In this document: piece after piece, positions 16-58,453 of the stretch
Numbering within the stretch: the stretch's first letter is position 1
Layout: every line of letters begins with the position of its first letter
NCBI GenBank assembly: GCA_910577795.1
Contig: CAJTNW010000006.1
Coordinates: forward strand, 1-59,354
Direction of reading: 5' to 3'
DNA: 59,354 nt
DNA from: an uncultured Christensenella sp.
GTDB taxonomy: Bacteria > Bacillota > Clostridia > Christensenellales > UBA3700
Position numbers and translations under genes: made by a program
Notes under the pieces: generated by a model
Seen by the model: only the letters and a program-made list of their open reading frames with translations
Databases searched by the model: none
What the model was told of the DNA's origin: nothing

Positions 16-28
16 CGATTTTTGATAG
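16..28 (+). repeat. Copy of strand-polar motif CGATTTTTGATAG (intergenic)
   Basis: Exact 13-mer read at 16-28 (cccCCGATTTTTGATAGta). One of at least 11 same-strand copies of the core CGATTTTTGA. Confidence 0.9.
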
Positions 29-73
29 TATATTTGAATAAATCTTACTTTTACACTAAATCAAACTTTACAC

Positions 74-121
74 AAAAACAAACACACTGAAAAGCAGTTG
101 TTTTAGTGTGTTTGTTTTTTA
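74..121. terminator. Bidirectional intrinsic terminator downstream of the AEC transporter gene
   Basis: 13-bp perfect stem AAACAAACACACT (76-88) / AGTGTGTTTGTTT (105-117), flanked by an A-run and a T-run. Confidence 0.8.
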
Positions 122-191
122 TTTGTCCTTTATTTCGTTTTTAATTTTTAGAATAGTTATGGCTTATATTATATATTATTTTTAAGCATTG

Positions 192-1154
192 TTATTTAAT
201 TGCATAAATATCTGGCACGGCATTCATAATTAAAGCCATTAAAGGCAAAGTTATAATGCTTAAAATTGTACCTAATAAAACTAAGTTTGCAGCAGTTTTT
301 TGTCCCTTACCTAACATTTCTGCAAAGTTTAAAGTTATGCTTGCAACAGGTGTTGCGGCTAAAATAAATAGAGACTGACGAATATAAAAATCTATAGGAA
401 TAAACCAAATTAAAATTAACCCAAGCAAGGGCATTAATATTTGTTTAACACCAACAATTGCATATTGGAATGGGGAGCAAAACATTTCCTTAAATGTTAT
501 TGTTGCAAGTCGCATACCTAAAATAATCATACATAAAGGTGTCGTCATTTTGCCAAGTAATTCCACACAAGTAAAAATCTCTGTTGGCAATTTTGCCCCA
601 CAAATAAATAATGGTAACCCAATAACTAAACCTAACATTGCGGGATTAATAAAGGCTTTTTTAGCACTTATAAACTTTTTATCACCACTTATTAAATAAG
701 AGGCAAATGTCCAACCAATAAGATTAAGACCTAATAAAAACATTACTGATAAAACTACTGCATTGTTTCGCACATCTTCTGGCATAATTGCTTGCAATAG
801 TGGTACTCCCATAAAGCCACAGTTACCAAAAGCCGTTGCAACAGTTGCCACACGATATTTTATATCCTTATCATAATTCTTTTTTAAACAAAAATATGCT
901 ATTATGATAACACCTAATTGCAATACACCAGCAAGCACAAAAGCAACTATCATTTGCCAAAAAAAGTTTAAGGAAAACTGAGCATTTAAAAAAGATGTGA
1001 TAGTAAGCATAGGCTGGCATACATACATAAGCACTACTGAAAAAGCAGAAATACTTTCAGGTTTTATTAATTTGCATTTTACGGTTAAAAATCCCGGCAC
1101 AGCATAAGCAAGCATAGTTGCAACTGCTATTGCTGTAGTAATTAAAACTTGCAT
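192..1154 (-). CDS. AEC (auxin efflux carrier / malate-permease-like) family membrane transporter
   Basis: 320-aa polytopic hydrophobic ORF (MQVLITTAIAVATMLAY...) with about 10 TM segments. GGGAGG RBS just upstream of the ATG. Family assigned by overall resemblance only. Confidence 0.65.
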   Translation of the reverse strand: MQVLITTAIAVATMLAYAVPGFLTVKCKLIKPESISAFSVVLMYVCQPMLTITSFLNAQFSLNFFWQMIVAFVLAGVLQLGVIIIAYFCLKKNYDKDIKYRVATVATAFGNCGFMGVPLLQAIMPEDVRNNAVVLSVMFLLGLNLIGWTFASYLISGDKKFISAKKAFINPAMLGLVIGLPLFICGAKLPTEIFTCVELLGKMTTPLCMIILGMRLATITFKEMFCSPFQYAIVGVKQILMPLLGLILIWFIPIDFYIRQSLFILAATPVASITLNFAEMLGKGQKTAANLVLLGTILSIITLPLMALIMNAVPDIYAIK

Positions 1155-1272
1155 ATTCTACCTCCCACCGCAATATTAAACTTTTTATTAAAAATTTGCA
1201 AGCATTTTTATATTAAATTTTATTATTTTTCTACAAAAATTGCTAAAATAATACATAAATATAAACTTGAAA

Positions 1273-1302
1273 CAAAAAATGGCGGATTTATATATCTGCC
1301 AT
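1273..1302 (-). terminator. Intrinsic terminator after the HAD gene (end of the thiD-thiC-HAD unit)
   Basis: Stem ATGGCGGAT (1279-1287) / ATCTGCCAT (1294-1302), followed by a T6 run on the minus strand. Confidence 0.8.
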
Positions 1303-1311
1303 CATTTTATT

Positions 1312-1962
1312 TTATAACAATTCATTGAATCCTTTTATATACATGTCAGAAATATTTTTTATCTCTTGACTATCTGATGCGGACTCCTTGTCATACACTC
1401 CAACTACAAAAAATCCCCCTGCTTTTGCACCAGTTATACCTTTTAAAATATCCTCAAACACCACACATTCACTTGGCATAAACTTAGTATGACTTATTGC
1501 TTTTAAGTATATATCTGGAAAACCTTTACCTCTTTTTACTTGTTCGCTATTAACCACCCTATCAAAATATTGTAAAATACCATTTCGCTCTAATGCAGGA
1601 ATTGCAAGTTCAAGGCTAAGTGAAGTTGCAACAGACATTGATATATTTTGACTTTTTAGTTTTTGCAAAAATTCAGTGACAGAGGGTTTTAGCATAATTT
1701 TATTACAATATGCTTCCTTTGCCATCTCTAGCCATTCACTTATCAATTGCTCCGGACTATCTTTTAGATTAAATCTTTTTATTGAATACAATGCTGTGTC
1801 CAAAACACTTAAGTGATTAATACATTTCATATAATCTGCAGGTACTTCTATTCCGCGTTTTGATAGGTAATCATAATCAATTTGCTTCCATAACCACATA
1901 GAATCAAACATAGTTCCGTCCAAATCAAACACTGCATACTTTATATTACTTGGTAAATTCAT
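1312..1962 (-). CDS. HAD-IA family hydrolase, putative thiamine monophosphate phosphatase (by context)
   Basis: HAD motif I FDLDGTMFDS near the N-terminus, 216 aa. The start ATG overlaps the thiC stop (TAATG), placing it in the TPP-riboswitch-controlled unit. Confidence 0.7.
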   Translation of the reverse strand: MNLPSNIKYAVFDLDGTMFDSMWLWKQIDYDYLSKRGIEVPADYMKCINHLSVLDTALYSIKRFNLKDSPEQLISEWLEMAKEAYCNKIMLKPSVTEFLQKLKSQNISMSVATSLSLELAIPALERNGILQYFDRVVNSEQVKRGKGFPDIYLKAISHTKFMPSECVVFEDILKGITGAKAGGFFVVGVYDKESASDSQEIKNISDMYIKGFNELL

Positions 1963-3275
1963 TAATTTTCCTCTTTCAATTTTATCTTTTTGCCATCAAG
2001 TATCATATTGGTTGTTCTAATAGCACACATTTTGCCACACATTGAACAAGTATGTCTATTTTTTGGCGGAACACTTTCGTAATAAGCACGTGCTTTTTCA
2101 GGGTCTATTGCATATTTAAACATACCCTCATAATCAACTTTATGTCTGCAGTCAGACATTTTATTATCTATTTCCCTAGCATAAGGAATACCTTTTGCAA
2201 TATCTGCAGCATGAGCGGCAATTTTTGTTGCAATAAGTCCCTCTTTAACGTCATTAACATCTGGTAATCTTAAATGCTCGGCAGGAGTAACATAACACAA
2301 AAAGTCTGCCCCATTTGATGCTGCTATTGCACCACCTATGGCAGCGGTTATATGGTCATAACCGGGTGCAATATCTGTAACCAATGGTCCAAGCACATAA
2401 AAAGGTGCGTTATGACATAACTTCTTTTCCATTTGCATATTGCTTGCAATTTCATTTAATGCCATGTGTCCAGGGCCTTCTATCATAACTTGAACGTCTC
2501 TATCCCATGCCCTTTTTGTCAAATATCCAAGTTCTATTAATTCCCCAATTTGTCCAGCATCAGTACTATCATCAATACAACCTGGTCTCATTGCATCGCC
2601 AAGACTTATAGTAACATCATACTTTCTTAAAATATCTAATACTTTATCATAATATTCGTAAAAAGGATTTTCATTGCCAGTCATTTGCATCCAAGCAAAA
2701 AGCAAAGAGCCACCACGAGAGACAATATTCATTCTTCTGCCTTCACGCATAAATCCTTCTACCACTCTTTTATTAATACCAGCATGTATGGTAACAAAAT
2801 CTACACCTTGCTTTGCATGTGCTTCCACCACTTCCAAAAAATCTTCGGCTGTTATATCTAGCAAATCTTTTTCCAAATATCCAATTGCATCATACATAGG
2901 TACAGTACCTATCATTGCAGTTGACTTTTCTATCAATTTACCTCTAAATAAATTGGTTTTGCCACAATTAGACAAATCCATTATTCCTTCAGCACCATAT
3001 TTTAAAGCAATATCAACTTTTTGCATTTCTAATTCATAATCTTTAAAATCGCCTGAAACACCCAAATTGACATTGACTTTAGTTTTAAGTCCACTACCAA
3101 CACCTTCTGGGGATATATTTTTATGATTTATATTACAAGGAATAGCAACTTCTCCACAAGCCACTTTTTGCATAATATATTCTGCAGTTAATTGTTCTTT
3201 TTCTGCAACTATCATCATTTCTGGGGTAATAATACCTTTTTTTGCTGCTTCCATTTGTGTTGCATATCCTCTCAT
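1962..3275 (-). CDS. thiC: Phosphomethylpyrimidine synthase ThiC
   Basis: 437 aa, [20 protein letters not shown]... with a C-terminal CSMCG...C cluster motif typical of radical-SAM ThiC. GGAGG RBS. Confidence 0.95.
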
Positions 3276-3339
3276 AAAAACCTCCTAAAACTAATAAATA
3301 ATATATTTATTTAATACTTCATATAAAAATTCTTCTAAT

Positions 3340-3355
3340 TAATACCGATTTTTGT
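3340..3355 (+). repeat. Variant copy of the polar motif (TAATACCGATTTTTGT), thiD-thiC spacer
   Basis: Shares TAATACCGATTTTTG with the intergenic consensus, with one mismatch in the core. It abuts the thiD stop codon. Confidence 0.7.
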
Positions 3356-3359
3356 ACTA

Positions 3360-4149: not shown

Positions 4150-4283
4150 ACCTCCTCAAAAAAATTGCCCTCCAAAATGAGGGCAAAATTAATACTTATT
4201 TTGCTCCCTTCACTGGTATTAACCAACAGGTTCAAAGGGTTGAGCATTTTGCTCTCTCAACTAAAAATAGTACCCCTGCACAA
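4150..4283 (-). promoter_or_regulatory. TPP (THI-box) riboswitch with terminator expression platform
   Basis: The minus strand reads GCAGGGGTAC..TTGAGAGAG..ACCCTTTGAACCTGTTGGTTAATACCAGTGAAGGGAGC. Hairpin TTGCCCTC-attttg-GAGGGCAA plus a T7 run follows, immediately before the thiD RBS. Confidence 0.9.
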
Positions 4284-4285
4284 TT

Positions 4286-4314
4286 AGTATATAACATTTT
4301 TATTAAATTGTAAA
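4286..4314 (-). promoter_or_regulatory. Sigma-A-type promoter for the TPP riboswitch-thiD-thiC-HAD unit
   Basis: Minus strand TTTACA (4314-4309), 17 nt, TATACT (4291-4286), just upstream of the riboswitch P1. Confidence 0.55.
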
Positions 4315-4364: not shown

Positions 4365-4916
4365 TTAAAATGTAAGTTTCATAGCACTACTCATAATAGC
4401 AAAGTCAATTGCTCCATTTTGTAAAACCAATTTATAATTATTGCTATTTATGCCACCTATTGCCATAACAGGAATGGTTGCAATATCACATATCTTTTCA
4501 AGTTGTTTTAAACCTCTTGGTGTTAACCCCACCTTGCAGTCTGTTTCAAAAATATGTCCAAAAACCAAATTAGTTGCAAATAGTTTTTCTGCAATTTTCA
4601 CCTCTTTTTCGTTATGAATAGATACAGAAATTTTGTCAAAACAATTTTTAGAGTCGATTTTTGATAGATTATTTATATTAGTATGAAAATTTTTGACACC
4701 TAACTCTTTTGCAATTTGATATCTATGACAGATAAATAATTCAACATTGTTTTGCATACATATAGGAATTATTTTCTTTGCTAAAGCCATATATTCTTTA
4801 TCATCAGCATCTTTTTCACGCAAAAATATAGACTTTGGTTTGTATTTATTAATACACTCAATAACAATTTTATCTGCAGGCATAACTGCGTTTTTAAAAT
4901 CAGTAAAAATTACCAT
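4365..4916 (-). CDS. tenI: Thiazole tautomerase TenI (ThiE-fold paralog)
   Basis: 183 aa. The block NLVFGHIFETDCKVGLTPRG closely matches my recollection of B. subtilis TenI ([20 protein letters not shown]). AIGGI motif present. Last gene of the thiS operon. Confidence 0.75.
   Translation of the reverse strand: MVIFTDFKNAVMPADKIVIECINKYKPKSIFLREKDADDKEYMALAKKIIPICMQNNVELFICHRYQIAKELGVKNFHTNINNLSKIDSKNCFDKISVSIHNEKEVKIAEKLFATNLVFGHIFETDCKVGLTPRGLKQLEKICDIATIPVMAIGGINSNNYKLVLQNGAIDFAIMSSAMKLTF
4655..4667 (+). repeat. Copy of the polar motif CGATTTTTGATAG inside tenI
   Basis: Exact 13-mer. It encodes LSKID on the minus strand. Confidence 0.85.
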
Positions 4917-6874: not shown

Positions 6875-6893
6875 TAATACCGATTTTTGATAG
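6875..6893 (+). repeat. Full-length copy of the polar motif TAATACCGATTTTTGATAG (thiF-thiG spacer)
   Basis: Exact 19-mer, identical to the copy at 58435-58453. Confidence 0.9.
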
Positions 6894-6910
6894 TTTATCT
6901 TAATTTTAAA

Positions 6911-7699
6911 TCAACATTCTACCTCACCAAGCAAAATTCTTGCAACCATATTTGCTTGATGTGCTGCACATATATTTACACGTGGTGACATAAGACTCAA
7001 ACCTTCCTTTGCTTCGCTTTGCATATCCCCGCATATATATAATCTGGACATAGGCTTATTAGTTTTTATTAAATTACTGCTACCTATACCTGCCATACCA
7101 GAACTTGCAACCACAATTTTGTCGCTACCTGCAAGTATTGTATTGACTATTTCTGCCTTTGATTTTGCACTATCAAAGGCCTCAACTACTATGTCTGCAC
7201 ATTCTATTATTTCAAGAATATTTTTGCTATTTACAAAAACATTCTTTTTTACAATTTGTACATAAGGGTTTATTTTTAGTAAAATATTAGTTGTTGCATC
7301 TGTTTTTAAACTTCCAATATCACTTACAAAATAATTTTGTCTGTTTAAATTTGTTGGGTCAACTATATCATAGTCAACAAGTATTAATTTACCTATACCA
7401 AGTCTTGTAAGCATTTCTGCTATATTTGAACCTAATCCACCTAGTCCGCAAATACACACGCAAGATTTGTTTAATTTGTCACTAGCATCTTTGCCGTTTC
7501 TTGCAAATATCATTTGATTAAAATCTTCCTTATTTGGTACTTGTCCAGATTTTACTGCAACAATATTATCCCCTTCAAACAATTCAGTTTGCTTGGTTAT
7601 ACCATAACCATTTCTTACAAAAACATCAAAGTCCCCAATATCTTTTGCAGTGCTACCTTTTGGCATATTAATTATTTTACCATTACAAATAATTTGCAA
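6911..7699 (-). CDS. thiF: ThiS adenylyltransferase ThiF with an N-terminal ThiS-like (beta-grasp) extension
   Basis: E1-like Rossmann motif ICGLGGLGSNIAEMLTRLGIGKLILVDYDIVDPTNLNRQ. About 65 extra N-terminal residues (MQIICNGKIINMP...FEGDNIVAV). Confidence 0.88.
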   Translation of the reverse strand: MQIICNGKIINMPKGSTAKDIGDFDVFVRNGYGITKQTELFEGDNIVAVKSGQVPNKEDFNQMIFARNGKDASDKLNKSCVCICGLGGLGSNIAEMLTRLGIGKLILVDYDIVDPTNLNRQNYFVSDIGSLKTDATTNILLKINPYVQIVKKNVFVNSKNILEIIECADIVVEAFDSAKSKAEIVNTILAGSDKIVVASSGMAGIGSSNLIKTNKPMSRLYICGDMQSEAKEGLSLMSPRVNICAAHQANMVARILLGEVEC

Positions 7700-7701
7700 A
7701 A

Positions 7702-7896
7702 TCAGCCACCCCCTACAAAACTAACTATTTCTACCACATCTCCATCATGCAAAGTAGTATTAACATAATCTGCTTTTTTTACTATATTTCCATTAAGTTC
7801 CACTGCTACAACTTCAATTTTGTATCCGCAACTTTTTAAATATTCCATTAAATTTAAATTGTTTAAATCTTTATTTTCGCCATTAATTTTAATCAT
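7702..7896 (-). CDS. thiS: Sulfur carrier protein ThiS
   Basis: 64 aa, MIKINGENKDL...VVEIVSFVGGG with the C-terminal GG. ATG at 7896. The ORF-track extension runs into the leader terminator. Confidence 0.9.
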   Translation of the reverse strand: MIKINGENKDLNNLNLMEYLKSCGYKIEVVAVELNGNIVKKADYVNTTLHDGDVVEIVSFVGGG

Positions 7897-13256: not shown

Positions 13257-14021
13257 TTATTTTATACGATAAAACCTTTTTGTATTTTGATAAGTTAAAT
13301 TTGCAACTTCTTCATAAGATATACCCAAATCCTGAGCCATTCTTTCTGCAATATACTTTAAATAATTAGGGTTATTTGTTTTGCCTCTAAATGGTACAGG
13401 TGTTAAATATGGGCTATCTGTTTCCAGCAAAAGCCTATCTTTTTTTACCGCCCTAATAACCTCTGCACGATTATTGTTTTTAAAAGTAATACTACCACCA
13501 AAAGCATAGTATGGGTCTAAAAAAGCAAACCTATCTATCATTTCCTTGCTACCAGAATAACAATGTAAAAGCACACCATTTTTAATATAATCTTTGTACT
13601 TGGTAAATACACTTTCCATATCTTGATAAGCATCTCTTAAATGAATTACTACTGGCAATTGTAAGGTGTCCGCAAGCAATATTTGTTTAATTAATAGCGA
13701 TTTTTGAGCGGTTTTATCATAATCATAATGATAATCCAAACCTATTTCACCAATTGCAACAACCTTATCATTTTGTGCAAGCAACCTTAATTCTTCTATA
13801 TCATTATCTGTTGCTCTTTCTGCAAACTCTGGGTGCAAACCAACTGTTGCATAAATATTGTCATACTTTTCTGCAAGCAAAACTGCACCTTTAGAAGATG
13901 ACATATCTGCACCTATCTCTATACTTAACTCAATGTCATTTATAGGGTATTGTGCCAATATTTCAGGTATACTTTCTACTAACCTTTCATCAAGCAAATG
14001 TGCATGAGAATCAATTAGCAT
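13257..14021 (-). CDS. tatD: TatD family metal-dependent hydrolase/DNase (YabD-like)
   Basis: 254 aa, MLIDSHAHL...GEIGLDYHY...VVIHLRDA...LHCYSG...ETDSPYL, the TatD motifs. Confidence 0.92.
   Translation of the reverse strand: MLIDSHAHLLDERLVESIPEILAQYPINDIELSIEIGADMSSSKGAVLLAEKYDNIYATVGLHPEFAERATDNDIEELRLLAQNDKVVAIGEIGLDYHYDYDKTAQKSLLIKQILLADTLQLPVVIHLRDAYQDMESVFTKYKDYIKNGVLLHCYSGSKEMIDRFAFLDPYYAFGGSITFKNNNRAEVIRAVKKDRLLLETDSPYLTPVPFRGKTNNPNYLKYIAERMAQDLGISYEEVANLTYQNTKRFYRIK
13698..13707 (+). repeat. Core copy of the polar motif CGATTTTTGA inside tatD
   Basis: Exact 10-mer. It encodes QKS on the minus strand, a different frame from the SKI copies. Confidence 0.75.
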
Positions 14022-17426: not shown

Positions 17427-18122
17427 TTATTTGTTATTTACAATTTCTATTTTACCAGTTTTTAAGGCAGTTACAAATTGCATTTCATCTATGCTATAAA
17501 TATGTTTTCTGTTTATATTACAAACAACTACAACTTTTTTTTCTATTTTTTCAATATGCAAATCCCCTATGATATCCCCTTCGCAAATTGGGCAAGGCTT
17601 ATCTATTATAATTTCAAAAACGTGTCCGTCTATCAAAACTTCTGCAGGTTTTTTAAAACCATATTTTCTTATAGAAATTTGATTATCTTGCAACCTTTTT
17701 ATACCTTGAGAGTTATAATATCTCTCTAGTGTAAAACCAAAGCAAGTTAACATTGCAAGCATAAAAATAAACAAACAAATAAAAGCAACTATATCAATAG
17801 GTATTAAAACTTTTGCAATAATAGCACCTACTAAAAAAACAATTGCTAACAAAAATGATAAAATAGTATACATTATGCTTTTAGAATATAAGGAGTTTCT
17901 ATCACCTTCTCTTTTAACTTTTAAATCTTCTAAAGGCCATAGTTTGCTATCTACTATATCTTCCTCATAAATAGTTGCTTTTAACTCTTGAACTTTGTCA
18001 TCTAGTGCTTGCCTACTAAGAGGAATTTCTTCCTCTTTTTGCGGTATCAAATATCCACAATATTTACAATATTTGTCATTTTCGTCAATCATTTGACCGC
18101 AATTTTTGCATTTAATATCCAT
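17427..18122 (-). CDS. Hypothetical membrane protein with N-terminal zinc ribbon and C-terminal Cys/His domain
   Basis: CKNCG-x10-CKYCG at the N-terminus, two adjacent TM helices, then C-terminal CPICEGD...C...H. Confidence 0.6.
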   Translation of the reverse strand: MDIKCKNCGQMIDENDKYCKYCGYLIPQKEEEIPLSRQALDDKVQELKATIYEEDIVDSKLWPLEDLKVKREGDRNSLYSKSIMYTILSFLLAIVFLVGAIIAKVLIPIDIVAFICLFIFMLAMLTCFGFTLERYYNSQGIKRLQDNQISIRKYGFKKPAEVLIDGHVFEIIIDKPCPICEGDIIGDLHIEKIEKKVVVVCNINRKHIYSIDEMQFVTALKTGKIEIVNNK

Positions 18123-22202: not shown

Positions 22203-23279
22203 TCAACTTCTTCCGATAATATAACTACAAATAATATCGCCAACCTCGCTACACTTAACCAGTTTTTTATCTGGTTGCATAATATCCTGTGTGCGATAGC
22301 CATTTTGTATAAATAGTTCAATTGCTCTTTCTATACTTTTTGCCTCATCAAACATTCCAAACGAATTTTTTAACATCATTGAGGCACTACTTATCATTCC
22401 TATAGGATTTGCAATATCTTTGCCTGCAATGTCAGGCGCAGAACCATGTATTGCTTCATAAAAGCCTCTGCTACCATCACCAATAGAACAAGAACCCGCC
22501 ATTCCTATAGAGCCTACTATAGCACTCGCCTCATCACTTAAAATATCCCCAAACATATTTTCTGTTAAAATAACATCGATTTTTGATGGGTTTTTGATAA
22601 GTTGCATCGCACAATTATCCACATACATATAAGATACATTTACATTAGGATAAGATTTTGCCATATCACCAACAACTTTTCTCCACAATTTAGAAGTTGC
22701 TAGGACATTTGCTTTATCCACTAACAATAAATTGCCACTTCTTTTTAAAGATAACTCAAAAGCGACTTTTGCAACTCTTTTAATTTCATTTTCTGTATAT
22801 TTCATTATATCAGTTGCAGTTTTCTCAGTATTTTCTACACTTTCGCTATGCTGCCCAAAATAAACACCGCTTACAAGTTCACGTACTATCATAATATCAA
22901 TACCACTGCCAACTATGTTTGCCTTTAATGGGCTATCCAGTTCTTTAAACAATTTTTGTGGGCGAAGATTTGCATAAACTTGCATTGCTTTTCTAATACC
23001 TAACAAGGCTTTTTCTGGTCTATTTTCAGGGGATTCATTATCCCATTTTGGTCCACCAACTGCACCTAATAGAGTACTATCAGCAGAAAGCACCTTATCT
23101 AAAGTTTCTTGTGGCAGGCATTTACCAGTTTTGTCAATTGCAGCACCACCTGCTAAACAATAATGATATACAAATTTATGATTATATTTTTCTGCTACTG
23201 TGTTTAATACCTTAATAGCCTCTGCCATAACTTCAGGGCCTATTCCATCGCCTTCAATAACGCATATATTTTTTACCAT
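22203..23279 (-). CDS. leuB: 3-isopropylmalate dehydrogenase
   Basis: 358 aa, ICVIEGDGIGPEV...NLRP...MIVRELVSGVYFG...ENMFGDILSDEAS. Confidence 0.95.
   Translation of the reverse strand: MVKNICVIEGDGIGPEVMAEAIKVLNTVAEKYNHKFVYHYCLAGGAAIDKTGKCLPQETLDKVLSADSTLLGAVGGPKWDNESPENRPEKALLGIRKAMQVYANLRPQKLFKELDSPLKANIVGSGIDIMIVRELVSGVYFGQHSESVENTEKTATDIMKYTENEIKRVAKVAFELSLKRSGNLLLVDKANVLATSKLWRKVVGDMAKSYPNVNVSYMYVDNCAMQLIKNPSKIDVILTENMFGDILSDEASAIVGSIGMAGSCSIGDGSRGFYEAIHGSAPDIAGKDIANPIGMISSASMMLKNSFGMFDEAKSIERAIELFIQNGYRTQDIMQPDKKLVKCSEVGDIICSYIIGRS
22577..22586 (+). repeat. Core copy of the polar motif CGATTTTTGA inside leuB
   Basis: Exact 10-mer. It encodes SKID on the minus strand. Confidence 0.75.
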
Positions 23280-23779: not shown

Positions 23780-25039
23780 TCAAACCTCCTCTGGGGTCGC
23801 TAGTCTGCCCAAAATACTACTTGCTGCTGCCACACTTGGACTAGCAAGATAAATTTTACTATTAATATGCCCCATTCTACCTATAAAGTTCCTGTTAGTA
23901 GTTGACACACAACTTTCACCATCTGCAAGTATGCCCATGTGTCCACCAAGACAAGGTCCACAAGTTGGAGTACTAATAATAGCCCCCGCCTTTATAAATA
24001 TTTCTGCCAAACCATTTTTTATACATTTTAAATAAATATCTTGTGTTGCCGGAATGATTATACACTTTAAGCCTTTCGCAACTTTTCTACCTTTTAAAAT
24101 TTCCGCTGCTATGCACATATCCTCATATCTACCATTAGTACAAGAACCTATTACAACTTGTGTGATAGGAATGATGCCCCACTCGTTTGGAGTTTTAACA
24201 TTTTCAGGCAAATGAGGAAAAGCAACACAATAATCTATTTCTGACAAATCAATAGTATATGTCTTATAATATTCCGCATCATCATCTGCAACTTCAACAG
24301 TATATTCTTTATCGCAATGCTCTTTTAAATATTTTTCTGTAATTTTGTCTACTGCAAAAATTCCGTTTTTAGCACCCGCTTCAACCGCCATATTAGCAAT
24401 GGTAAATCTGTCTGCCATATTAAGATATTTTAGTCCACTGCCAACAAACTCCATGCTACAATATCTTGCACCTTCCACACCAATTTTGCCAATAATGTAC
24501 AAAATAACTTCTTTACCTGTAATACCTTTTTTAGGCTTGCCGATAATTTCAAACTTAATACTCTTTGGCACTTTAAACCAACTTTGTCCTGTTACCATTG
24601 CAACAGCAAAATCAGTTGAGCCAACACCACTAGAAAATGCACCAAGCGCACCATAAGTACAAGTATGAGAATCCGCACCAATAATCATATCACCCGCTTT
24701 AACCAAACCTTTTTCTGGCAAAAAAGCATGTTCTATACCTGATTCCCCAATATCATAAAAGTGTTTAATACCGATTTTTGACGCAAAATTTTTAGTTTTT
24801 TGCACCTGAATAGCAGATTTTATATCTTTGCAAGGTACAAAATGGTCCATAATCAAAGCAATTTTTTCCTTGTCAAAAACTTTATTAAATTCTGCTTTTT
24901 CAAATTCGTCAATAGCAAGAGGTGCAGTAATATCATTTGCTAAAATCATATCCAAGTTTGCCATAACAAGCATGCCAGGCTGCACACTTTCCAAACCACA
25001 ATGTTTAGCAATAATTTTTTCTGTCATTGTCATTGCCAT
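23780..25039 (-). CDS. leuC: 3-isopropylmalate dehydratase large subunit
   Basis: 419 aa, MTEKIIAKH...[11 protein letters not shown]...GSCTNGR...CGPCLG aconitase-family cluster ligands. Confidence 0.95.
24765..24780 (+). repeat. Copy of the polar motif (TAATACCGATTTTTGA) inside leuC
   Basis: 16 nt identical to the intergenic consensus. It encodes SKIGIK on the minus strand. Confidence 0.8.
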
Positions 25040-28118: not shown

Positions 28119-28639
28119 TTTTTTATTACTCCAATTACTGTCTTGCACTATTTGTCCTCCGTAAATATTTATTATGCAAAAACAGCAATTTATTTATGAA
28201 TTTGTTGTTTATTGCAATGTAATTTATAAAACATTTTACCTTTAAATAAAGTTTTTGCAACAAACAACTATGTACCATAAAGAATATTAATTATTAAATA
28301 TCCTCAAAACATAATACGCAAAATTTATTTTAAAAGTGAAAATGTATTTTTATATAATTTTATCATACATAGTATAATACTTTTAATAAAAAAATGCAAT
28401 ATTTTTTAATACAAACAAAAACAACTTATTACTTTAAAAATAATAACGATTTTCGTAGGGTATTTTTATAAATTTTAAACTAAAGCAACTATTTTTCTTT
28501 TACATAAATTGTTTGCTCTACAATATGAGATAAAACAGATGAAAAAAAAGTTATAATTTTTAATTAATTTTGCCAAATAATTTTTATTAATATATGTTTT
28601 GCTTTTGTAGGTGCATATTAATTTAAAATATATTATTAA

Positions 28640-35728: not shown

Positions 35729-35971
35729 TTAGCCTTGTGCCTCAGCATCAGCCTTAGTTGCTTTTGCTTTTTTTGCACTCTTCTTTTCCTCAACTTCTTC
35801 AATAGAAATCAAATGTTTAACAACTTTGATTTGACCTTGAAGACAAGGATTATCGTTGTGAATTTTGCTAGAACCGATTTTTGATAGTCCTAATGCCTCA
35901 ATAGTTGCTTTTTGCTTTTTAAGGCTTCCGATAGTGCTTTTAATAAGCGTAATTTTTAATTGTTTAGCCAT
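35729..35971 (-). CDS. rpmD: 50S ribosomal protein L30 (with Lys/Ala-rich C-terminal tail)
   Basis: MAKQLKITLIKSTIGS...GLSKIGSS... Has a roughly 20-aa extra tail EEKKSAKKAKATKADAEAQG. Confidence 0.93.
   Translation of the reverse strand: MAKQLKITLIKSTIGSLKKQKATIEALGLSKIGSSKIHNDNPCLQGQIKVVKHLISIEEVEEKKSAKKAKATKADAEAQG
35874..35887 (+). repeat. Copy of the polar motif CCGATTTTTGATAG inside rpmD
   Basis: Exact 14-mer. It encodes LSKIG on the minus strand. Confidence 0.85.
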
Positions 35972-46338: not shown

Positions 46339-46558
46339 AATTTCACCCAAGTAAAACTTTGCAATAACTCAACAAAAATCGAATAATATTGCAATTTTTC
46401 TATTTAATACAGACATATAATTTGTATTGTTTATTGATATAATTATATAATAAAATTAATAGTTTGTCAATAAAGGCAAATAAAACAAATGGTAATAAAC
46501 ATTTTATATGCGTTTTGTATAAAATTGAATATTACTGCCAAAATTTATAGTAAAATAG

Positions 46559-46589: not shown

Positions 46590-46748
46590 ACTTTGCTGAG
46601 TAGAAATACTGCGTTAAGTGCCATAGAACGGGATGTTGACTATGGACGAAAGAGGAATACCTCTGCGGTTGTATTTCACATCCGAGGCAAGTTATTAGTT
46701 TTTAGTAATTTTCTCGGTACTCTCCACTATTTTAGGAGGTACTTTTTT
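46590..46748 (+). promoter_or_regulatory. THF (tetrahydrofolate) riboswitch plus expression hairpin
   Basis: CTGAGTAG..GCGTTAAGTG..GGGATGT..GGACGAAAG..CTGCGGT..CATCCGAGGCAAG matches the THF-I aptamer core. Hairpin GGTACTCTCC/GGAGGTAC plus T7 follows, containing the RBS. Confidence 0.88.
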
Positions 46749-47372: not shown

Positions 47373-47391
47373 TAATAACGATTTTTGATAG
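47373..47391 (+). repeat. Copy of the polar motif (TAATAACGATTTTTGATAG), intergenic after folT
   Basis: The 13-mer core is exact (47379-47391), with one mismatch to the 19-nt consensus. Confidence 0.88.
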
Positions 47392-50091: not shown

Positions 50092-52002
50092 TTAAGCAAT
50101 TTCTTCTGCTTTTTTACCATTGTACAATTCGTAATATCTACCACGTTTTGCTATTAATTGGTCATGGTTACCTCTCTCTATTATTTCACCATGTTCCAAA
50201 ACCATTATGCAGTCAGAGTTTTGAATGGTAGAAAGTCTGTGTGCTATAACAAAACAAGTTCTGCCTTGCATCAAACTATCCATACCTTTTTGAACCAAAA
50301 TTTCTGTTCTTGTATCAATACTACTTGTAGCCTCGTCCAAAATCATAAGTGGTGTATCTGCAAGTATTGCACGGCTTATAGATAACAACTGCCTTTGTCC
50401 TTGAGATAATGAAGAGCCATCTCCATCAATTATAGTATCATATTTATCTGGCAACATTTCTATAAATTCATGAGCACCACCGCGTTTGCAAGCACTTACA
50501 ACCTCTTCGTCAGTAGCATTTGGTCTGCCGTATCTAATATTTTCAGCAATAGTACCACTAAACAAATTAACGTCCTGCAAAACTATACCCAAAGATTTAC
50601 GCAAATCTTCCTTTTTGATTTTGTTGATATTAATACCATCATATCTGATTTTTCCGTCATCAATATCGTAAAATCTGTTAATCAAGTTAGTAATTGTAGT
50701 TTTACCTGCACCAGTTGAGCCAACTAACGCAATTTTTTCGCCTGGCTTTGCATTTATAGTAATGTCTTTTAAAACAAGTTTATCTTCTACATATCCAAAG
50801 TCAACATGGTCTAGTTCCACTCTACCTTCAAGTTTTGCATAAGTTAAAGTTCCATCTGTATGGGGATGTTTCCAAGCCCAGTCACCATCTTCGGATTCAA
50901 CAAACACACCATTAACTTCCTTACCTTTAACAAGTGTAACATATCCGTTATCCACTTCCTCTTCCTCAGAAAGCAATTGGAATATTCTTTTAGAACCTGC
51001 AGTTGCCATAGCAAAGTTATTAATCTGCTCTGCAAACTGGTTAATAGGCATTGTAAATGATTTTGACAAAGGCAGGAATGTAACTACTGCTGCAATAGTA
51101 GTACCAGCAACATTTGTTATTACCAACGCACCACCAATTAAAGCAATTAACACATAAAGCAAATGTCCCATACCCATCATTATAGGCATAATTGTGCAAG
51201 CAAGTTTTACCGCACGAAAACTAGCATCTCGCCAATTGTCATTTATACCGGCAAATTCCTTTTTGCAAACTTCCTCATGGTTAAATACTTTTACAACTCT
51301 TTGACCGCCTATCATTTCCTCTACATAACTATTTACATCGCTTATTGCTTTTTGTTGTCCTGCAAAGTACTTAACAGACCTTTTACCAATAAATTGTGCC
51401 ACAAACAACATTATTGCACCATAAGCCAATGTACAGCCTGCCAAAATAGGACTTAGCAAAAACATTGAAACAACCACCGCAATTAGAGTAGTAATTAAGT
51501 TAATAAGTTGCGGAATACCTTGAGATAACAATTGCATCATAGTATCTGTATCGTTAGAAAAATAACTCATTATATCGCCATTATTTTTTCTGTCAAAATA
51601 CTTAACAGGCAATTTTTGCAATTTAATAAACATATCATCTCTTATAGAACGCATAGTGTTTTGAGATATGATTATCATAAATTGGTTATAAAGCAACGCA
51701 GAAAGTACACCCGCACCATATATACCAGCCATATAACTTATTGCTTTTACAATACCGCTTAAATCTGGGTTTGATGTGCCAATTAATGGTTGAACATAAT
51801 CAGAAAGCAATGTATTAATAAACATTGAGCCAGCAATAGATGCTAGTGCAGATATAATAATACCACACACTACTGTAATAAATAATGCTCTATATTTTTT
51901 AAATATTGTTTTTATAATCAATGCAATTGTATTTGGTTGCTTATTATTAGTTTTTTTGTTATTTACATTCGATTTTTGAAGGGTTTTAGTTGTTGTCATC
52001 AT
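50092..52002 (-). CDS. ABC exporter, fused permease/ATPase (heterodimer partner B)
   Basis: 636 aa: 6 TM, then GSTGAGKTT (Walker A), LSQGQRQ (signature) and LMILDEATS (Walker B). An extra segment of about 45 aa precedes the NBD. Confidence 0.9.
   Translation of the reverse strand: MMTTTKTLQKSNVNNKKTNNKQPNTIALIIKTIFKKYRALFITVVCGIIISALASIAGSMFINTLLSDYVQPLIGTSNPDLSGIVKAISYMAGIYGAGVLSALLYNQFMIIISQNTMRSIRDDMFIKLQKLPVKYFDRKNNGDIMSYFSNDTDTMMQLLSQGIPQLINLITTLIAVVVSMFLLSPILAGCTLAYGAIMLFVAQFIGKRSVKYFAGQQKAISDVNSYVEEMIGGQRVVKVFNHEEVCKKEFAGINDNWRDASFRAVKLACTIMPIMMGMGHLLYVLIALIGGALVITNVAGTTIAAVVTFLPLSKSFTMPINQFAEQINNFAMATAGSKRIFQLLSEEEEVDNGYVTLVKGKEVNGVFVESEDGDWAWKHPHTDGTLTYAKLEGRVELDHVDFGYVEDKLVLKDITINAKPGEKIALVGSTGAGKTTITNLINRFYDIDDGKIRYDGININKIKKEDLRKSLGIVLQDVNLFSGTIAENIRYGRPNATDEEVVSACKRGGAHEFIEMLPDKYDTIIDGDGSSLSQGQRQLLSISRAILADTPLMILDEATSSIDTRTEILVQKGMDSLMQGRTCFVIAHRLSTIQNSDCIMVLEHGEIIERGNHDQLIAKRGRYYELYNGKKAEEIA
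51970..51979 (+). repeat. Core copy of the polar motif CGATTTTTGA in the overlap region of the two ABC genes
   Basis: Exact 10-mer. It encodes QKS in the 636-aa ORF frame. Confidence 0.75.
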
Positions 52003-54356: not shown

Positions 54357-55268
54357 TTATTTAACATTTACTAAAACATCTTCCATATCTTTAGGAAGGG
54401 ATGATGTAAACTCCATTTGCTCATTTGTTATAGGGTGGCAAAAGGCAATTTTTTGACTATGAAGAGCCGGTCTTTCAATTAATTGTTTGCTACCACCATA
54501 CAAATCATCACCCAATAAAGGATGTCCTATATATGACATGTGCACTCTTATTTGATGAGTTCTACCAGTTGCTAATTTTATTTTTACAAGGCTATAATTG
54601 CTTGTGCTAATTACTACCTCATAGTAAGTTTTTGCAAACTTTCCACCTTCAGTTACTACTCCTCTTACCAAACTATTTCCATTAGGTATGCCTATATCCC
54701 CTATTATTTCGCCTTTACCAGTCAATATATTATCTTTATTATGCACAAGAGCAAGATATTCCCTTTGTACATTTTTTTCATTATTGTTTTTATCTTCAGC
54801 AATATTGGCTGATAATATACTATGCGAAAGTGCATTTTTTGCCACTATCATAAGTCCGCTTGTGCCTTTATCTAATCTATTTACAGGATGATATACAAAA
54901 TCTCCCCATACATTTGCAAGAGCATTCATTAAACTTTTTCCGTAATGTGCATTTGTTGCAATTACTGCAATATCTGCACTTTTATTGATTACTGCAATAT
55001 CCTTATCCTCATAAACAAAATCTATATTATGATTAAATGGTACGATTTTTGGAGGGTTTTCTTTTAATTTAACTTTAATTTTATCCCCAACTTTTATTTT
55101 TTCAACAACAAAGACAGGTTTGTCATTTACACAAACCAATCCTAATTCCTTCTTTAATAAATTACAAATTCTACTTGAGTACCCTTTGCTCTTTAGCAAA
55201 CTTTCAACACTGCCGTCTTCAGTTGCAATATATTCAAAAATTCTTTCCATATCACAACCATACCACAT
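54357..55268 (-). CDS. RluA-family pseudouridine synthase (RluD-like, N-terminal S4-like domain)
   Basis: HRLDKGTSGLMIVAK catalytic motif...GRTHQIRVH. The start is ambiguous (55268 or 55250). Confidence 0.88.
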   Translation of the reverse strand: MWYGCDMERIFEYIATEDGSVESLLKSKGYSSRICNLLKKELGLVCVNDKPVFVVEKIKVGDKIKVKLKENPPKIVPFNHNIDFVYEDKDIAVINKSADIAVIATNAHYGKSLMNALANVWGDFVYHPVNRLDKGTSGLMIVAKNALSHSILSANIAEDKNNNEKNVQREYLALVHNKDNILTGKGEIIGDIGIPNGNSLVRGVVTEGGKFAKTYYEVVISTSNYSLVKIKLATGRTHQIRVHMSYIGHPLLGDDLYGGSKQLIERPALHSQKIAFCHPITNEQMEFTSSLPKDMEDVLVNVK

Positions 55269-55269
55269 T

Positions 55270-56229
55270 TTATTTTTTATTGCAAGCCTTATTAATCAAG
55301 TTTGTTATATTCTGATAGTTTGCTGAGCGATTTATTCTCCCTAATAAAAAAAGAGAATTCTTATTCTCCAGATAATTCACTTTTTCCACACAGGTCATTG
55401 TCATTTGATAATTTAAACCTTTAAGCACCCTTTCACTTTCTCTGCAAAACTCTCCATAAGGATAACAATAAGTTTTTACTTTTACTCCTAAACCATTTAG
55501 TTTGCTTGTTAATTTTTGAGTATCCTCTTTAAATACTTGTGTGTATTTGTCATTTGTCTCGTCTTTTTTTATTTTTACACCACGTCTGCCATCTTGTATA
55601 TGGTGAAAATTATATGAATGGTGAGCAATTTCTACTCGTTTATTTTTAGCAAGTTCTCTTACTTCATTAGTATTCATATAACTACACCTAGTCCTATAAG
55701 TCAACTTATCTTGTCTATCCATAAATTCACCAACAACAGAAACCAAACATTTCATATCATATTTTTCTAAAAGAGATGGTACATATTTATAAACCCCATA
55801 AAACCCATCATCAAATGTTATCATAACATATTTGCCAGTTTGCTTTTTGTTAACAATATCAAAAAGGCTTTTTCTATCAACACATTTATAGCCTAATTTT
55901 TTCAATTCCTTAAAATCTTCTTCCAAGACTGACTGCTTTACTTCATAATTACCTTGTTTTTGTGTGTTACCAACAACATTGTGATACATTAAACACAATA
56001 ATTCTATTTTCTTACCACTTGCTACATCTTTTGTGCTGGTCTTACTCATAGATAAAAAGTTATTATCGCTTTTATTATCAATATCATAATCCGCTACTTT
56101 GCAATTACTATCAAAAGCAACTTTTTTTGTCGCAAACTCACACTTGTCCATACCAATAACTAGACAAAGTGTAAGTGCTAATATAAATAACATAAAAAAC
56201 AATGTAAACTTACCATTATTTTTTGCCAT
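55270..56229 (-). CDS. Polysaccharide deacetylase (NodB/CE4) family protein, membrane-anchored
   Basis: N-terminal TM helix. ITFDDGF and ...HSYNFH motifs. 319 aa. Confidence 0.8.
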   Translation of the reverse strand: MAKNNGKFTLFFMLFILALTLCLVIGMDKCEFATKKVAFDSNCKVADYDIDNKSDNNFLSMSKTSTKDVASGKKIELLCLMYHNVVGNTQKQGNYEVKQSVLEEDFKELKKLGYKCVDRKSLFDIVNKKQTGKYVMITFDDGFYGVYKYVPSLLEKYDMKCLVSVVGEFMDRQDKLTYRTRCSYMNTNEVRELAKNKRVEIAHHSYNFHHIQDGRRGVKIKKDETNDKYTQVFKEDTQKLTSKLNGLGVKVKTYCYPYGEFCRESERVLKGLNYQMTMTCVEKVNYLENKNSLFLLGRINRSANYQNITNLINKACNKK

Positions 56230-56427
56230 AATATCCTCCTTGTTATTAGTATTTGTTAAAAAACCTAAATTATTTTAAAAAGTGGTTGATTATTTGATTA
56301 TATCTTATCTAGTTAATTTGAATATTTGTATTTTTCGTCATTTTTCCACATAAATACAAAAACATTTATCTTTTTGCAAAAACTCTAGTAAAATAACTTG
56401 ATATAAAAATAGTTTTATATTATAATA

Positions 56428-56483
56428 ATAACTGAAGTAACAAAAAGCATAACGAAAGTTATATTTTTCAGTTACGAAGTTAT
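56428..56483. promoter_or_regulatory. Three phased 14-bp imperfect palindromes (putative operator array) in the deacetylase/tkt divergent region
   Basis: ATAACtgaaGTAAC (56428), ATAACgaaaGTTAT (56449) and GTTACgaaGTTAT (56471). Spacing is about 21 nt, with consensus ATAAC-N4-GTTAT. Confidence 0.5.
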
Positions 56484-56605
56484 TATTTCAAACTACAAAT
56501 GCTTGTGACTACAAGCGGAAAATTACTTAAAAAAGGTTATAATATCATAATTTATTGATTAAAAAAGTTGAAAAACAACTATTTATTTTGTTATAGGAGT
56601 TCAAA

Positions 56606-57427
56606 ATGGAATCTAACACTATCAACACCCTTTACAAAAAAGCGGATTTAATACGTAAAATGTGTATTGAATGTATCGCAACATTTGGTGTGGGACATAT
56701 TGGTGGCTCATCAAGTATTATTGAGTTTTTAACAGCACTTTACTTTAAGTGTGCCAATATTGACCCAAAAGACCCTAAAAATCCTGACCGTGACAGAATT
56801 GTTTTGTCAAAAGGTCATGCTGCACCGGGTTTATATGCTACTCTTGCAGCAAGAGGTTATTTTGATAAAAAATTGCTTCTTACATTAAACCAAAATGGCA
56901 CTACTCTCCCATCTCATGCAGATATGTTGAAGGTAACTGGTGTAGACTTTACTGCTGGTTCTTTAGGTCAAGGAATTTCTGCTGCAGTTGGAATGGCAAT
57001 TTCTGCAATTATGGACCGCAGAAAATATCATACATTTGCAATTGTTGGCGATGGCGAAAGTCAAGAAGGTCAAGTATGGGAAGCCTTAATGCTTGCGGGT
57101 TCTAGACACTTGCATAATTTTACAGTTGTAATTGATAACAATAAAATGCAAATTGACGGACTAACAAAAGATGTTTGTAAGGTTGAACCTTTTGAGTCAA
57201 AACTTCGTGCTTTTGGTTTTAAAACTTACACTATTGATGGTCATGATATGGAAAGTATTGTTGATACTATTGAAAAATGTAAAAGGTCTCGTATGCCTTC
57301 TGCAATTGTTTTAAATACTATCAAAGGCAAAGGAATTAAATGTTGTGAAGGTCACTATAAATCACATAGTGTTAACTTTACTCCAGAAATGTTTGCTGCA
57401 GAATGCACTGGGGAGGTTTTAAAATGA
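56606..57427 (+). CDS. Transketolase, N-terminal (TPP-binding) subunit
   Basis: 273 aa, GHIGGSSSIIEFL...GDGESQEGQVWEA. AGGAG RBS. Confidence 0.92.
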   Translation: MESNTINTLYKKADLIRKMCIECIATFGVGHIGGSSSIIEFLTALYFKCANIDPKDPKNPDRDRIVLSKGHAAPGLYATLAARGYFDKKLLLTLNQNGTTLPSHADMLKVTGVDFTAGSLGQGISAAVGMAISAIMDRRKYHTFAIVGDGESQEGQVWEALMLAGSRHLHNFTVVIDNNKMQIDGLTKDVCKVEPFESKLRAFGFKTYTIDGHDMESIVDTIEKCKRSRMPSAIVLNTIKGKGIKCCEGHYKSHSVNFTPEMFAAECTGEVLK

Positions 57428-58377
57428 GCGAATTACACAATAAAGAAATGCGTCAAGTGTATGTAGATAACTTGATTAAATATTCTAAAGTTGACAGAAG
57501 AATTGTTGTGCTTGAAGCAGACCTTATGAATTGTATTGGCACAGCAAAATTTAAAGAGGCTTTTCCAAGACGTTTTATAAATTGCGGTATTGCAGAAAGC
57601 AATATGATAGGTGTTGCTGCTGGACTTGCAAGTTGTGGAAAACTACCTTTCTGCTCTTCTTTCAGTCCATTTGCAACAAGAAGATGCTATGACCAAATTG
57701 CTGTAAGTGTTGGTTATACAAAACAAAATGTTAAAATAGTTGGTACTGACCCTGGTATTATGGCACAAGTTAATGGTGGTACTCACATGAGTTTTGAAGA
57801 CGTTGCCCTAATGACTCAAGTACCAGATATGATAGTTGTAGAGCCTTGTGACTGCGTTTGTCTTGACAAGTTATTCCCTCAAATTATTAACTCTGACAAA
57901 CCTATGTATATTAGACTTCAAAGAAAAAAGACTCCTGCTATATATGATGACAATGCAAAAATTGACCTTTTTAAAGCAAACACTGTTGTAGAAGGTAAAG
58001 ACTTAACTATTATTGCATGTGGTATAATGGTTCATCGTGCAATTACTGCATCATTACTTTTAAAGAAGGAAGGCATAAATGCCAAAGTTATAGCACTTCA
58101 TACTTACAAACCTCTTGACACTGAAACCATTTTGAATGCTTGCAAGGAGACTGGTGCAGTTGTAACTTGTGAAAACCATCATTTAATAGGTGGACTTGGC
58201 TCTGAAGTTGCTGCACTACTTATGCAAAATGATGTACTTGTACCTATGGCAAGAGTTGGTATTGGTGATAGATATGGCGAAGTTGGTAAAGAAGCATATC
58301 TTGCGGAAATAATGAATCTTACAGAAAAAGATATTTTTGAAAAAGCAAAAGAAGTTTTTGCAAGAAAAACAAAATAA
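57424..58377 (+). CDS. Transketolase, C-terminal (pyrimidine-binding) subunit
   Basis: MSELHNKEMRQ...CGIAESNMIGVAAGLA. ATGA overlap with the N-terminal subunit. GGGGAGG RBS. Confidence 0.92.
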   Translation: MSELHNKEMRQVYVDNLIKYSKVDRRIVVLEADLMNCIGTAKFKEAFPRRFINCGIAESNMIGVAAGLASCGKLPFCSSFSPFATRRCYDQIAVSVGYTKQNVKIVGTDPGIMAQVNGGTHMSFEDVALMTQVPDMIVVEPCDCVCLDKLFPQIINSDKPMYIRLQRKKTPAIYDDNAKIDLFKANTVVEGKDLTIIACGIMVHRAITASLLLKKEGINAKVIALHTYKPLDTETILNACKETGAVVTCENHHLIGGLGSEVAALLMQNDVLVPMARVGIGDRYGEVGKEAYLAEIMNLTEKDIFEKAKEVFARKTK

Positions 58378-58400
58378 ATTAAACATTTTAAAATTAAGTA

Positions 58401-58431
58401 AAAATAACCGCTAAACTTGCGGTTATTTTTA
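58401..58431. terminator. Bidirectional terminator between tkt (+) and the nucleotidyltransferase gene (-)
   Basis: ATAACCGC (58404-58411) / GCGGTTAT (58419-58426), flanked by an A-run and a T-run. Confidence 0.8.
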
Positions 58432-58434
58432 TTT

Positions 58435-58453
58435 TAATACCGATTTTTGATAG
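58435..58453 (+). repeat. Full-length copy of the polar motif TAATACCGATTTTTGATAG (intergenic)
   Basis: Exact 19-mer, identical to 6875-6893. Confidence 0.9.

Follow-up and report, generated by a model that had tools for sequence, protein, structure and literature searches.

Short exact words that are under selection across both genes and spacers are rare. The cases that have been explained, i.e., the DNA uptake sequences and uptake signal sequences (DUS/USS), Chi and the FtsK-orienting polar sequences (KOPS), each revealed a machine that reads the whole chromosome. Chi words measure 5-8 nt, are G-rich and are read in single-stranded DNA. KOPS and the SpoIIIE recognition sequences (SRS) are G-rich octamers with a skew that is usually above 80-90%, and we know of no strong flank consensus for them. 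The USS of Haemophilus has AT-rich flanks. Dialects of DUS differ by one base and can coexist, and for kingDUS, allowing one mismatch adds only 21% to the counts (PMC3630211). For DUS/USS there is no report of a general orientation bias, and within genes one orientation is approximately two-fold commoner than the other (PMC2346458). Here, a further word of this kind is described from a stretch of 59,354 nucleotides (the 59-kb window) on contig CAJTNW010000006.1 of an uncultured Christensenella sp. The window species is an uncultured gut bacterium that is present in more than 200 metagenome assemblies and in the metagenome-assembled genome (MAG) GCA_949087385.1, and for the uncultured gut Clostridia to which it belongs, no machine of this type is known. 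Tentatively, and by analogy with DUS/USS, the element is read as a self-tag, i.e., a lineage-specific double-stranded DNA site that would be read by a protein.

The word, CGATTTTTGA on the + strand and TCAAAAATCG in its sense reading, is real, strongly selected and not described before in this uncultured clade. In a small group of uncultured gut Clostridia it is approximately 100 times commoner than chance. Over-representation was assessed in the window, in an extension to 76 kb of the same genome and in sampled loci of the clade. A first-pass annotation, made from the letters of the window alone, had counted at least 11 exact copies on one strand without any exact reverse complement, and had judged this enrichment to lie beyond chance. 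A recount agrees, with 11 copies on the + strand and 0 on the other strand, starting at 16, 4655, 6881, 13698, 17392, 22577, 24772 (the copy in leuC, previously placed at 24771), 35875, 47379, 51970 and 58441. Against these stand 0.1-0.4 expected copies: 0.11 as the mean of dinucleotide shuffles and, for the + strand, 0.10 in an order-3 and 0.39 in an order-5 Markov simulation. Among the 7-10-mers of the window, TCAAAAATCG ranks at the top (z = 37.6 relative to the order-3 expectation), and the remaining top-scoring ones are all sub-words of it. As the annotation had also stated, six of the 11 copies extend exactly to the 13-mer CGATTTTTGATAG, and exact 19-mers start at 6875 and 58435; two further copies match the 13-mer with one mismatch. 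The specificity of the 10-mer is sharp. Two one-mismatch variants are seen on the sense strand, where 3.5-7.3 sites with ≤1 mismatch are expected in the window, so that near-variants are not enriched. The one-mismatch copy at 3346 and a degenerate reverse copy near 46372 are present as annotated, and the degenerate copy placed at 28446 starts at 28447. Motif density is approximately 1 per 5.4 kb in the window and approximately 1 per 9-11 kb in relatives. The exact and near copies in the window are the following.

10..28, minus strand: intergenic copy, sense reading CTA-TCAAAAATCG-GGGG-TA, in a conserved region that precedes a large surface-protein gene beyond the left window edge
3340..3358, minus strand: intergenic near copy ACAAAAATCG, with full flanks and TA and one mismatch
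4649..4667, minus strand: copy inside the TMP-TENI (tenI-like) gene, sense, L-S-K-I-D
6875..6893, minus strand: full 19-mer in the thiF-thiG spacer, 20 nt past the thiF stop and 25 nt ahead of the thiG start
13692..13710, minus strand: copy inside tatD, sense, Q-K-S with the rare TCG codon
17386..17404, minus strand: copy at a convergent junction, 25 nt past the stop of a zinc-ribbon gene (17427-18122, minus strand), just before a bidirectional terminator hairpin
22571..22589, minus strand: copy inside leuB, sense, P-S-K-I-D
24766..24784, minus strand: copy inside leuC, sense, A-S-K-I-G-I-K
28441..28459, minus strand: intergenic near copy, ACGAAAATCG in the sense reading, with C at -3 and TA
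35869..35887, minus strand: copy inside rpmD (ribosomal protein L30), sense, L-S-K-I-G
47373..47391, minus strand: copy at a convergent junction, 20 nt past the stop of a plus-strand folT-like gene and beyond the terminator of a minus-strand GAPDH gene
51964..51982, minus strand: copy within the first codons (T-L-Q-K-S, TCG) of an ABC transporter gene, where this gene meets the ABC gene upstream of it
58435..58453, minus strand: full 19-mer at a convergent junction, 15 nt past the stop of an NTP-transferase gene (minus strand), just before a bidirectional terminator

The conserved element is longer than its core. From an alignment of 35 non-redundant copies, taken from the window and related loci, a consensus of approximately 26-29 bp was derived that consists, on the G-rich gene-sense strand, of an A-tract, CTA, TCAAAAATCG, N4, TA and AA, with the sense-strand reading 5'-(CTA)TCAAAAATCG(GTATTA)-3'. 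The A-rich tract occupies positions -10 to -5 and C-T-A positions -3 to -1, after which the invariant 10-mer follows; 3' of it, the next four bases are weakly conserved (mostly GTAT), T-A at +14/+15 is again invariant, and A-A follows. The invariant bases thus number 10 + 2 (core and TA). All 11 window copies have TA at a distance of exactly 4 nt from the core, compared to a background TA frequency of 0.10. This TA is likewise present in 52 of the 55 site groups of a clade pool, against 10% in the background. In this pool orthologues were collapsed by ungapped flank identity; grouping by shared 9-mers was dropped because AT-rich flanks linked unrelated sites. The A-tracts are phased, approximately 11-12 bp apart. 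The reversed copies, too, have phased A-tracts and a TA at one helical turn from the core. Such duplex-shape features speak for recognition of double-stranded DNA by a protein rather than for single-strand scanners of the Chi or primase type.

The consensus has a minimum free energy of 0 kcal/mol on both strands, in line with the lack of hairpin potential noted in the first-pass annotation. Beyond approximately 29 bp the flanks are unrelated to one another, apart from those of a single sub-family that precedes paralogous surface-protein genes. The copies are therefore not pieces of one longer repeat, which answers the suggestion, raised in that annotation as a way in which its signal could fail, that all of them are fragments of one longer mobile element. 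Repeats of the repetitive extragenic palindrome, bacterial interspersed mosaic element or miniature inverted-repeat transposable element type were rejected on the folding energy, the unrelated flanks and the location of 6/11 copies inside genes. Separately, the commonest 8-mer of the window is TTGCAAAA, with 40 minus-strand vs 14 plus-strand copies; it often occurs just upstream of intergenic motif copies, and its abundance is probably a codon or composition effect.

The six coding copies, in the tenI-like gene, tatD, leuB, leuC, rpmD and the ABC transporter gene, are all in sense orientation. Pfam matches (TMP-TENI, TatD, Iso_dh, Aconitase, L30 and ABC) agree with the gene identities proposed before, and the reading frames are as described, four genes having S-K-I-G/D and two having Q-K-S. 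The genes of the window encode five S-K-I-(Gnn) peptides, of which four are spelled with TCAAAAATCG (TCA-AAA-ATC-G), while synonymous codon usage predicts 1.6%. Similarly, two of the three (xxT)-Q-K-S peptides use TCG, a codon that makes up 1.0% of serine codons and occurs 11 times in the window, 2 of them in the motif. TCG and ATC, which the coding copies use, are very rare codons. Because codon choice in both the S-K-I and the Q-K-S copies departs from synonymous usage, selection acts on the nucleic acid itself, and the earlier proposal of a DNA-level signal rather than one peptide motif is borne out by the two frames and the rare-codon spelling alike.

The five intergenic copies are more than expected, as intergenic DNA makes up 11% of the window (P = 0.004). 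Three of them lie at convergent gene ends, 15-25 nt from a stop codon and adjoining a terminator hairpin. Copies frequently adjoin terminators in the related loci as well as in the window, and among the clade site groups 8 lie at convergent vs 2 at divergent junctions. The copies are also spaced more evenly than random, the smallest gap being 2195 nt (P = 0.006 for the 11 copies; P = 0.004 for 13 copies over 76 kb). An operator or promoter element was rejected on the 8 convergent vs 2 divergent sites and on the many copies in genes or past stops. A specific promoter reading, with TATTAA as -10 and TTGNAA as -35 box, was rejected as well, since the spacers vary from 16 to 20 nt and the copies favour convergent ends and coding DNA.

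This placement bears on an alternative to the self-tag that is unlikely overall, namely that the element is the site of a lineage-specific architectural protein, nucleoid-associated or DNA-bending, that structures the chromosome at evenly spaced points, e.g., as an anchor for loops or by recruiting gyrase where convergent transcription piles up supercoils. The phased A-tracts within an asymmetric footprint of approximately 26-29 bp, the even spacing, the enrichment at convergent junctions beside terminators and the occurrence of both orientations in intergenic DNA would all suit such a site. The same holds for the invariant copy beside a putative invertible promoter switch (described below), which recalls the fim switch of E. 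coli with its accessory sites for bending proteins. Moreover, the CTATCAA flavour of the element partly matches the half-site WATCAA of IHF. Indeed, the element shares with IHF-type sites (WATCAANNNNTTR with an upstream A-tract) the tract itself, the sub-word TATCAA in its commonest flavour, the placement at operon ends and the one copy beside an invertible switch. Architectural sites, those of IHF included, are however usually degenerate, whereas the 10-mer is exact and its near-variants are not enriched; the TTR part of the IHF site is absent, the invariant bases differ, and the rare codons forced upon leuB, leuC, rpmD and tatD would be unusual for sites of this type. IHF itself is mainly proteobacterial.

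The self-tag reading draws on the distribution of the motif among relatives. A scan of a genome collection and a scan of metagenomes were both conducted with the 19-mer. Among 185,579 species genomes, 24 loci were found, 22 of which are in eight MAGs named by their depositors as Christensenella, Christensenellaceae, Clostridia or similar and mostly of 28-36% GC; the metagenome scan yielded 32 more loci. Related loci are given L-numbers here, with coordinates local to each locus. Positional conservation, which the first-pass annotation had proposed to check in related genomes, is evident: at orthologous sites the core is intact and the flanks have diverged, with L144 and L169 matching the window copies at 16, 4655, 6881 and 13698. 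Thus, the tenI-like copy has its orthologue in another species (L144:3121, L169:374), with the core kept within diverged flanks. The copies in the thiF-thiG spacer and in tatD have theirs at L144:852 and L169:9512, respectively. The copy at 10..28 lies in a region of approximately 400 bp that is found again at L150:4019 and in other species, always with an unchanged motif. The site at 3346, which has one mismatch in the window, is a perfect copy in a relative (L144:4490). The near copy ACGAAAATCG also corresponds to a perfect copy, in the equivalent L17-MFS spacer of another relative (L184:6448), with orthology judged from gene order only.

When relatives are graded by the identity of their LeuC to that of the window species (86%, 81%, 78% and 68%; the L17-MFS spacer above is that of the 86% relative), the leuB and leuC copies are both kept at 86%. 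At 81% and 78%, TCGAAAATCG followed by N4-TA stands at the leuB site instead, and the leuC copy is absent from relatives more distant than 86%. Neither form of the motif was found in the 68% relative. TCGAAAATCG is a one-base (TCG) variant of TCAAAAATCG and is always followed by N4-TA. It was found in sister species (L131, L136, L141, L152, L158, L159, L165, L177, L179, L186 and L188), some MAGs carry both forms, and it is absent from the window. As the TCA form is kept at 86%, TCGAAAATCG at 81% and 78%, and nothing at 68% LeuC identity, the motif is, as judged from these comparisons, lineage-restricted with a one-base dialect.

Two further features of the related loci were noted. Oppositely oriented motif pairs, 650-1100 bp apart, are kept across species (L130:393/1300, L164:1673/2580, L168 and L178; L128:4157/4814 and L181). 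One of these pairs lies within two neighbouring genes, a TRAM/U5 RNA methyltransferase gene (sense) and a DNA-alkylation-repair-like gene (antisense), and the other flanks a 179-aa open reading frame without a Pfam match. In addition, a mobile element probably occupies L192:16180-23114, on the opposite strand; it encodes an rve-type integrase as well as a rolling-circle Rep (REP_ORF2-G2P) and contains 0 motif copies in 7 kb, a length too short to test for depletion.

The strand polarity of the motif is a more complicated matter. GC skew on the + strand is approximately -0.1 to -0.3 along the whole window, and coding DNA amounts to 46.5 kb on the minus strand vs 6.3 kb on the plus strand (88% minus). 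From this skew and the gene direction, the minus strand is taken as the leading, gene-sense strand; because 88% of the coding DNA lies on it, the directions of replication and transcription are confounded in the window. Two more copies, oriented like the others, lie in an additional 17 kb of this genome, which brings the ratio to 13:0 over 76 kb. One reversed copy occurs in a strain variant of the window species, and loci reached via paralogues of the surface-protein gene, which are independent regions, hold seven leading-strand copies and one reversed copy. Over the clade, 34 sites are leading, 12 lagging and 6 ambiguous, i.e., 74% leading among the 46 that can be oriented. Coding copies are 13 sense : 2 antisense, intergenic sites are 23 leading : 10 lagging (P = 0.018 vs 50%), and intergenic copies between co-directional genes are 14 in the same vs 10 in the opposite orientation. 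Full 19-mers stand in reversed orientation in L135, L145, L154 and L180, and perfect reversed 19-mers are conserved across species, e.g., in the group of L135, L142, L166 and L183. Since the motif itself contaminates background models that are trained on the unmasked window, models with all copies masked were used. At orders 2-4 these place 0.51-0.75 of core and 0.70-0.98 of extended copies on the leading strand. For the clade, the bias differs from 50% (P = 0.0008), whereas its 74% does not differ from 67% (P = 0.20), and the local 13:0 is somewhat stronger than a 67% background predicts (P = 0.006). The leading-strand bias is real but partial, and since the masked background composition predicts much of it, no polar function is needed to explain it.

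The first-pass annotation had inferred polarity at the level of the chromosome. The local and clade-wide ratios uphold this in part, but the 14:10 distribution in spacers, the conserved reversed 19-mers and the background prediction do not. Its argument from copies that keep their orientation next to plus-strand genes started from real neighbours, but all three lie at convergent ends beside a minus-strand gene as well. The description in that annotation is accurate and its polarity argument overstated.

A polar chromosome guide read along each replichore, either Chi-like for AddAB/RecBCD or KOPS/SRS-like for FtsK/SpoIIIE, is accordingly a rather unlikely explanation. It would account for the 13:0 ratio and for the excess of leading-strand sites in the clade and in its intergenic DNA. 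The density of approximately 1 per 5 kb is similar to that of Chi in E. coli, and like Chi the word is mostly on the leading strand, occurs in and between genes and is common to related species. It also resembles KOPS/SRS in being an asymmetric word in duplex DNA that is biased towards the leading strand and spaced on the kilobase scale, and its hosts are spore formers (SpoIIR, SpoIIIAA and YpeB genes occur in the loci) that must use SpoIIIE and should need a guide for it. However, 12 invariant bases within a 26-29-bp consensus with phased A-tracts and conserved CTA/GTAT, which is not G-rich, differ from Chi, and a word of more than 8 bp, a clade skew of 74% and conserved perfect reversed copies differ from KOPS/SRS. 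Over-represented G-rich words with a skew towards the leading strand do occur in the window, i.e., GGACAAA (24:3, with 8.5 expected), GGACAAAG (8:0) and GTGGTAGA (9:0), and these would be more conventional candidates for signals of the Chi or KOPS type.

The position of the TA would also fit a programmed start site for primase on the lagging-strand template, in which Y-T-A at +13..+15 is the initiation trinucleotide and the core is copied into the primer. The motif-bearing G-rich strand is the lagging-strand template, +13 is T or C in 32 of the 35 aligned copies, and the T-A after it does not vary. In Firmicutes, primases begin synthesis at d(CTA) and d(TTA), with the middle base as the starting point (PMC2978363). 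Yet approximately one quarter of the sites are reversed, and YTA trinucleotides are abundant anyway. The spacing of 2-11 kb exceeds bacterial Okazaki fragments of 1-2 kb, and such a site would be without precedent, so that this explanation is the least probable of those considered, with hardly any weight. Some function outside those considered takes up the probability that they leave over.

An explanation at the RNA level was considered from the surroundings of the copies upstream of the surface-protein genes. Just outside both window ends, at L147:11182-11358 and L150:4071-4247, and also in L142, L177, L192, L195 and L197, 27-bp inverted repeats (GTACATAGAATAAGTATATCTATGTAC) that are approximately 123 bp apart flank a perfect TTGACA-18-TATAAT promoter. 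The second repeat is an exact reverse complement in other species and imperfect, with a few mismatches, on the right-hand side in the window species. The flanked promoter lies upstream of paralogous genes for proteins of approximately 1000 aa; the query protein is without a Pfam match, and a dockerin domain is present in some paralogues. The promoter points away from the gene in all assemblies seen, and in L198 a tyrosine recombinase gene is found nearby (6901-7815). The arrangement is a putative invertible promoter, apparently caught in the OFF orientation. In the same neighbourhood, left of window position 1, gene content is entirely different between strains of the window species (L147 vs L148, 11380-20963), one strain having glycoside hydrolases and the other aldolase and kinase genes; this variant region carries the sole reversed motif copy seen in this species.

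Leftward transcription from this strong, conserved promoter might yield a small RNA that carries CGAUUUUUGAUAG and pairs with the sense copies in mRNAs. The promoter faces the motif, a terminator follows approximately 185 nt on, the arrangement is kept across species, and within the stretch no block is more conserved than the motif, which is how a seed would look. The 13:2 excess of sense over antisense coding copies and the exactness of the match would likewise suit recognition by base pairing. Nevertheless, such an RNA is very improbable. The inverted repeats around the promoter are more simply explained by an invertible promoter, and the intergenic copies are divided 14:10 relative to transcription. 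The copy at 47379 lies beyond the terminator of its sense gene, hundreds of perfect mid-gene targets would be unprecedented, and Rfam gives no match.

Searches for known identities gave little. Rfam returned no family at the motif and, elsewhere in the window, only two riboswitches; no tRNA was found in a search of the window. The riboswitches are the following.

4188-4287, minus strand: thiamine pyrophosphate (TPP) riboswitch ahead of the thiamine genes
46594-46689, plus strand: tetrahydrofolate (THF) riboswitch ahead of the folT-like energy-coupling factor (ECF) transporter gene

A literature search for the word returned only unrelated, mostly eukaryotic papers. Scans of IMG/VR with a 14-, 16- and 19-mer gave almost only single matches, the contigs with the 14-mer having a median GC content of 41%, and two double matches are a tandem repeat within a phage gene. 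We take the viral matches to be roughly at chance level, and a phage- or plasmid-borne element was rejected on the almost exclusively single viral matches. Comparison with the known sites cre, DnaA box and CtsR, with sigma-D, sigma-B and sigma-54 promoters and with IHF sites showed mismatches at critical positions, and these were rejected too.

For the self-tag, the following mechanism is proposed by analogy. A lineage-specific sequence-reading protein would recognise the duplex of approximately 26-29 bp, i.e., A-tract, C-T-A, TCAAAAATCG, N4 and T-A-A-A. A surface DNA receptor would prefer fragments that carry the word, and through recombination of such tagged fragments, perfect copies would spread and persist at all sites where the genome can bear them. 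Both the reading of the site as duplex DNA by a protein and uptake as the process are what we infer from the grammar and distribution of the copies. It is possible, if doubtful, that this is the first uptake-type tag outside Neisseriaceae and Pasteurellaceae, with the clade tagging its DNA with TCAAAAATCG-N4-TA, sister species using the TCG dialect and tagged DNA being preferred for uptake or recombination. If so, sequence-specific transformation extends to Gram-positive gut anaerobes, and the TCA/TCG dialects predict barriers to gene flow between sister species. If the element were an architectural site or a polar guide instead, its sequence type would be new for that class. In practice, the motif can serve as a lineage marker for binning and as a handle on its reader, via a protein that co-varies with the dialect.

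Among the known systems, HIP1 (GCGATCGC) of cyanobacteria is comparable as a short, exact and hyper-abundant word that occurs in coding and non-coding DNA and is conserved at orthologous sites. It is an 8-bp palindrome and far denser, however, whereas the present motif is asymmetric and bipartite; to our knowledge, HIP1 has no settled function. Compared to DUS/USS, the sequence is unrelated, and several further points weigh against the self-tag. Density is 4- to 10-fold lower than the approximately 1 per kb that would be expected, and the copies stand singly beside separate hairpins rather than as inverted pairs forming terminators. With two defining features differing in this way, membership of the DUS class is unproven. 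The leading-strand bias, 74% in the clade and 13:0 in this genome, is a further difference, and the host is Gram-positive, spore-forming and uncultured, without known competence or receptor. As far as we know, sequence-specific uptake is known only in two Gram-negative families, and a literature search on uptake sequences in Gram-positives or Clostridia returned nothing relevant. A regular-expression search for a prepilin-type signal found none in 759 kb of clade DNA, a sample too small to count as evidence.

On the other side of this comparison, the exact over-represented core of 10 bp is of the same order as the 12 bp of the Neisseriaceae DUS and the 9-10-bp core of the Pasteurellaceae USS. 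As in these systems, copies occur in coding and intergenic DNA (6 in genes, 5 between them) with a cost in codon usage inside genes, and near-variants are scarce, with 11 perfect copies vs 2 with one mismatch on the sense strand. Like DUS, of which eight dialects occur in Neisseriaceae, the motif is lineage-specific and has coexisting one-base dialects, here TCA and TCG. Conservation at orthologous sites, A/T-tract flanks, even spacing and frequent placement downstream of genes near terminators are shared as well. Inside genes one orientation is preferred, and in intergenic DNA both are found, at 14:10 between co-directional genes. Of the known kinds of genomic word, DUS/USS are the closest, and it is these that the element most resembles.

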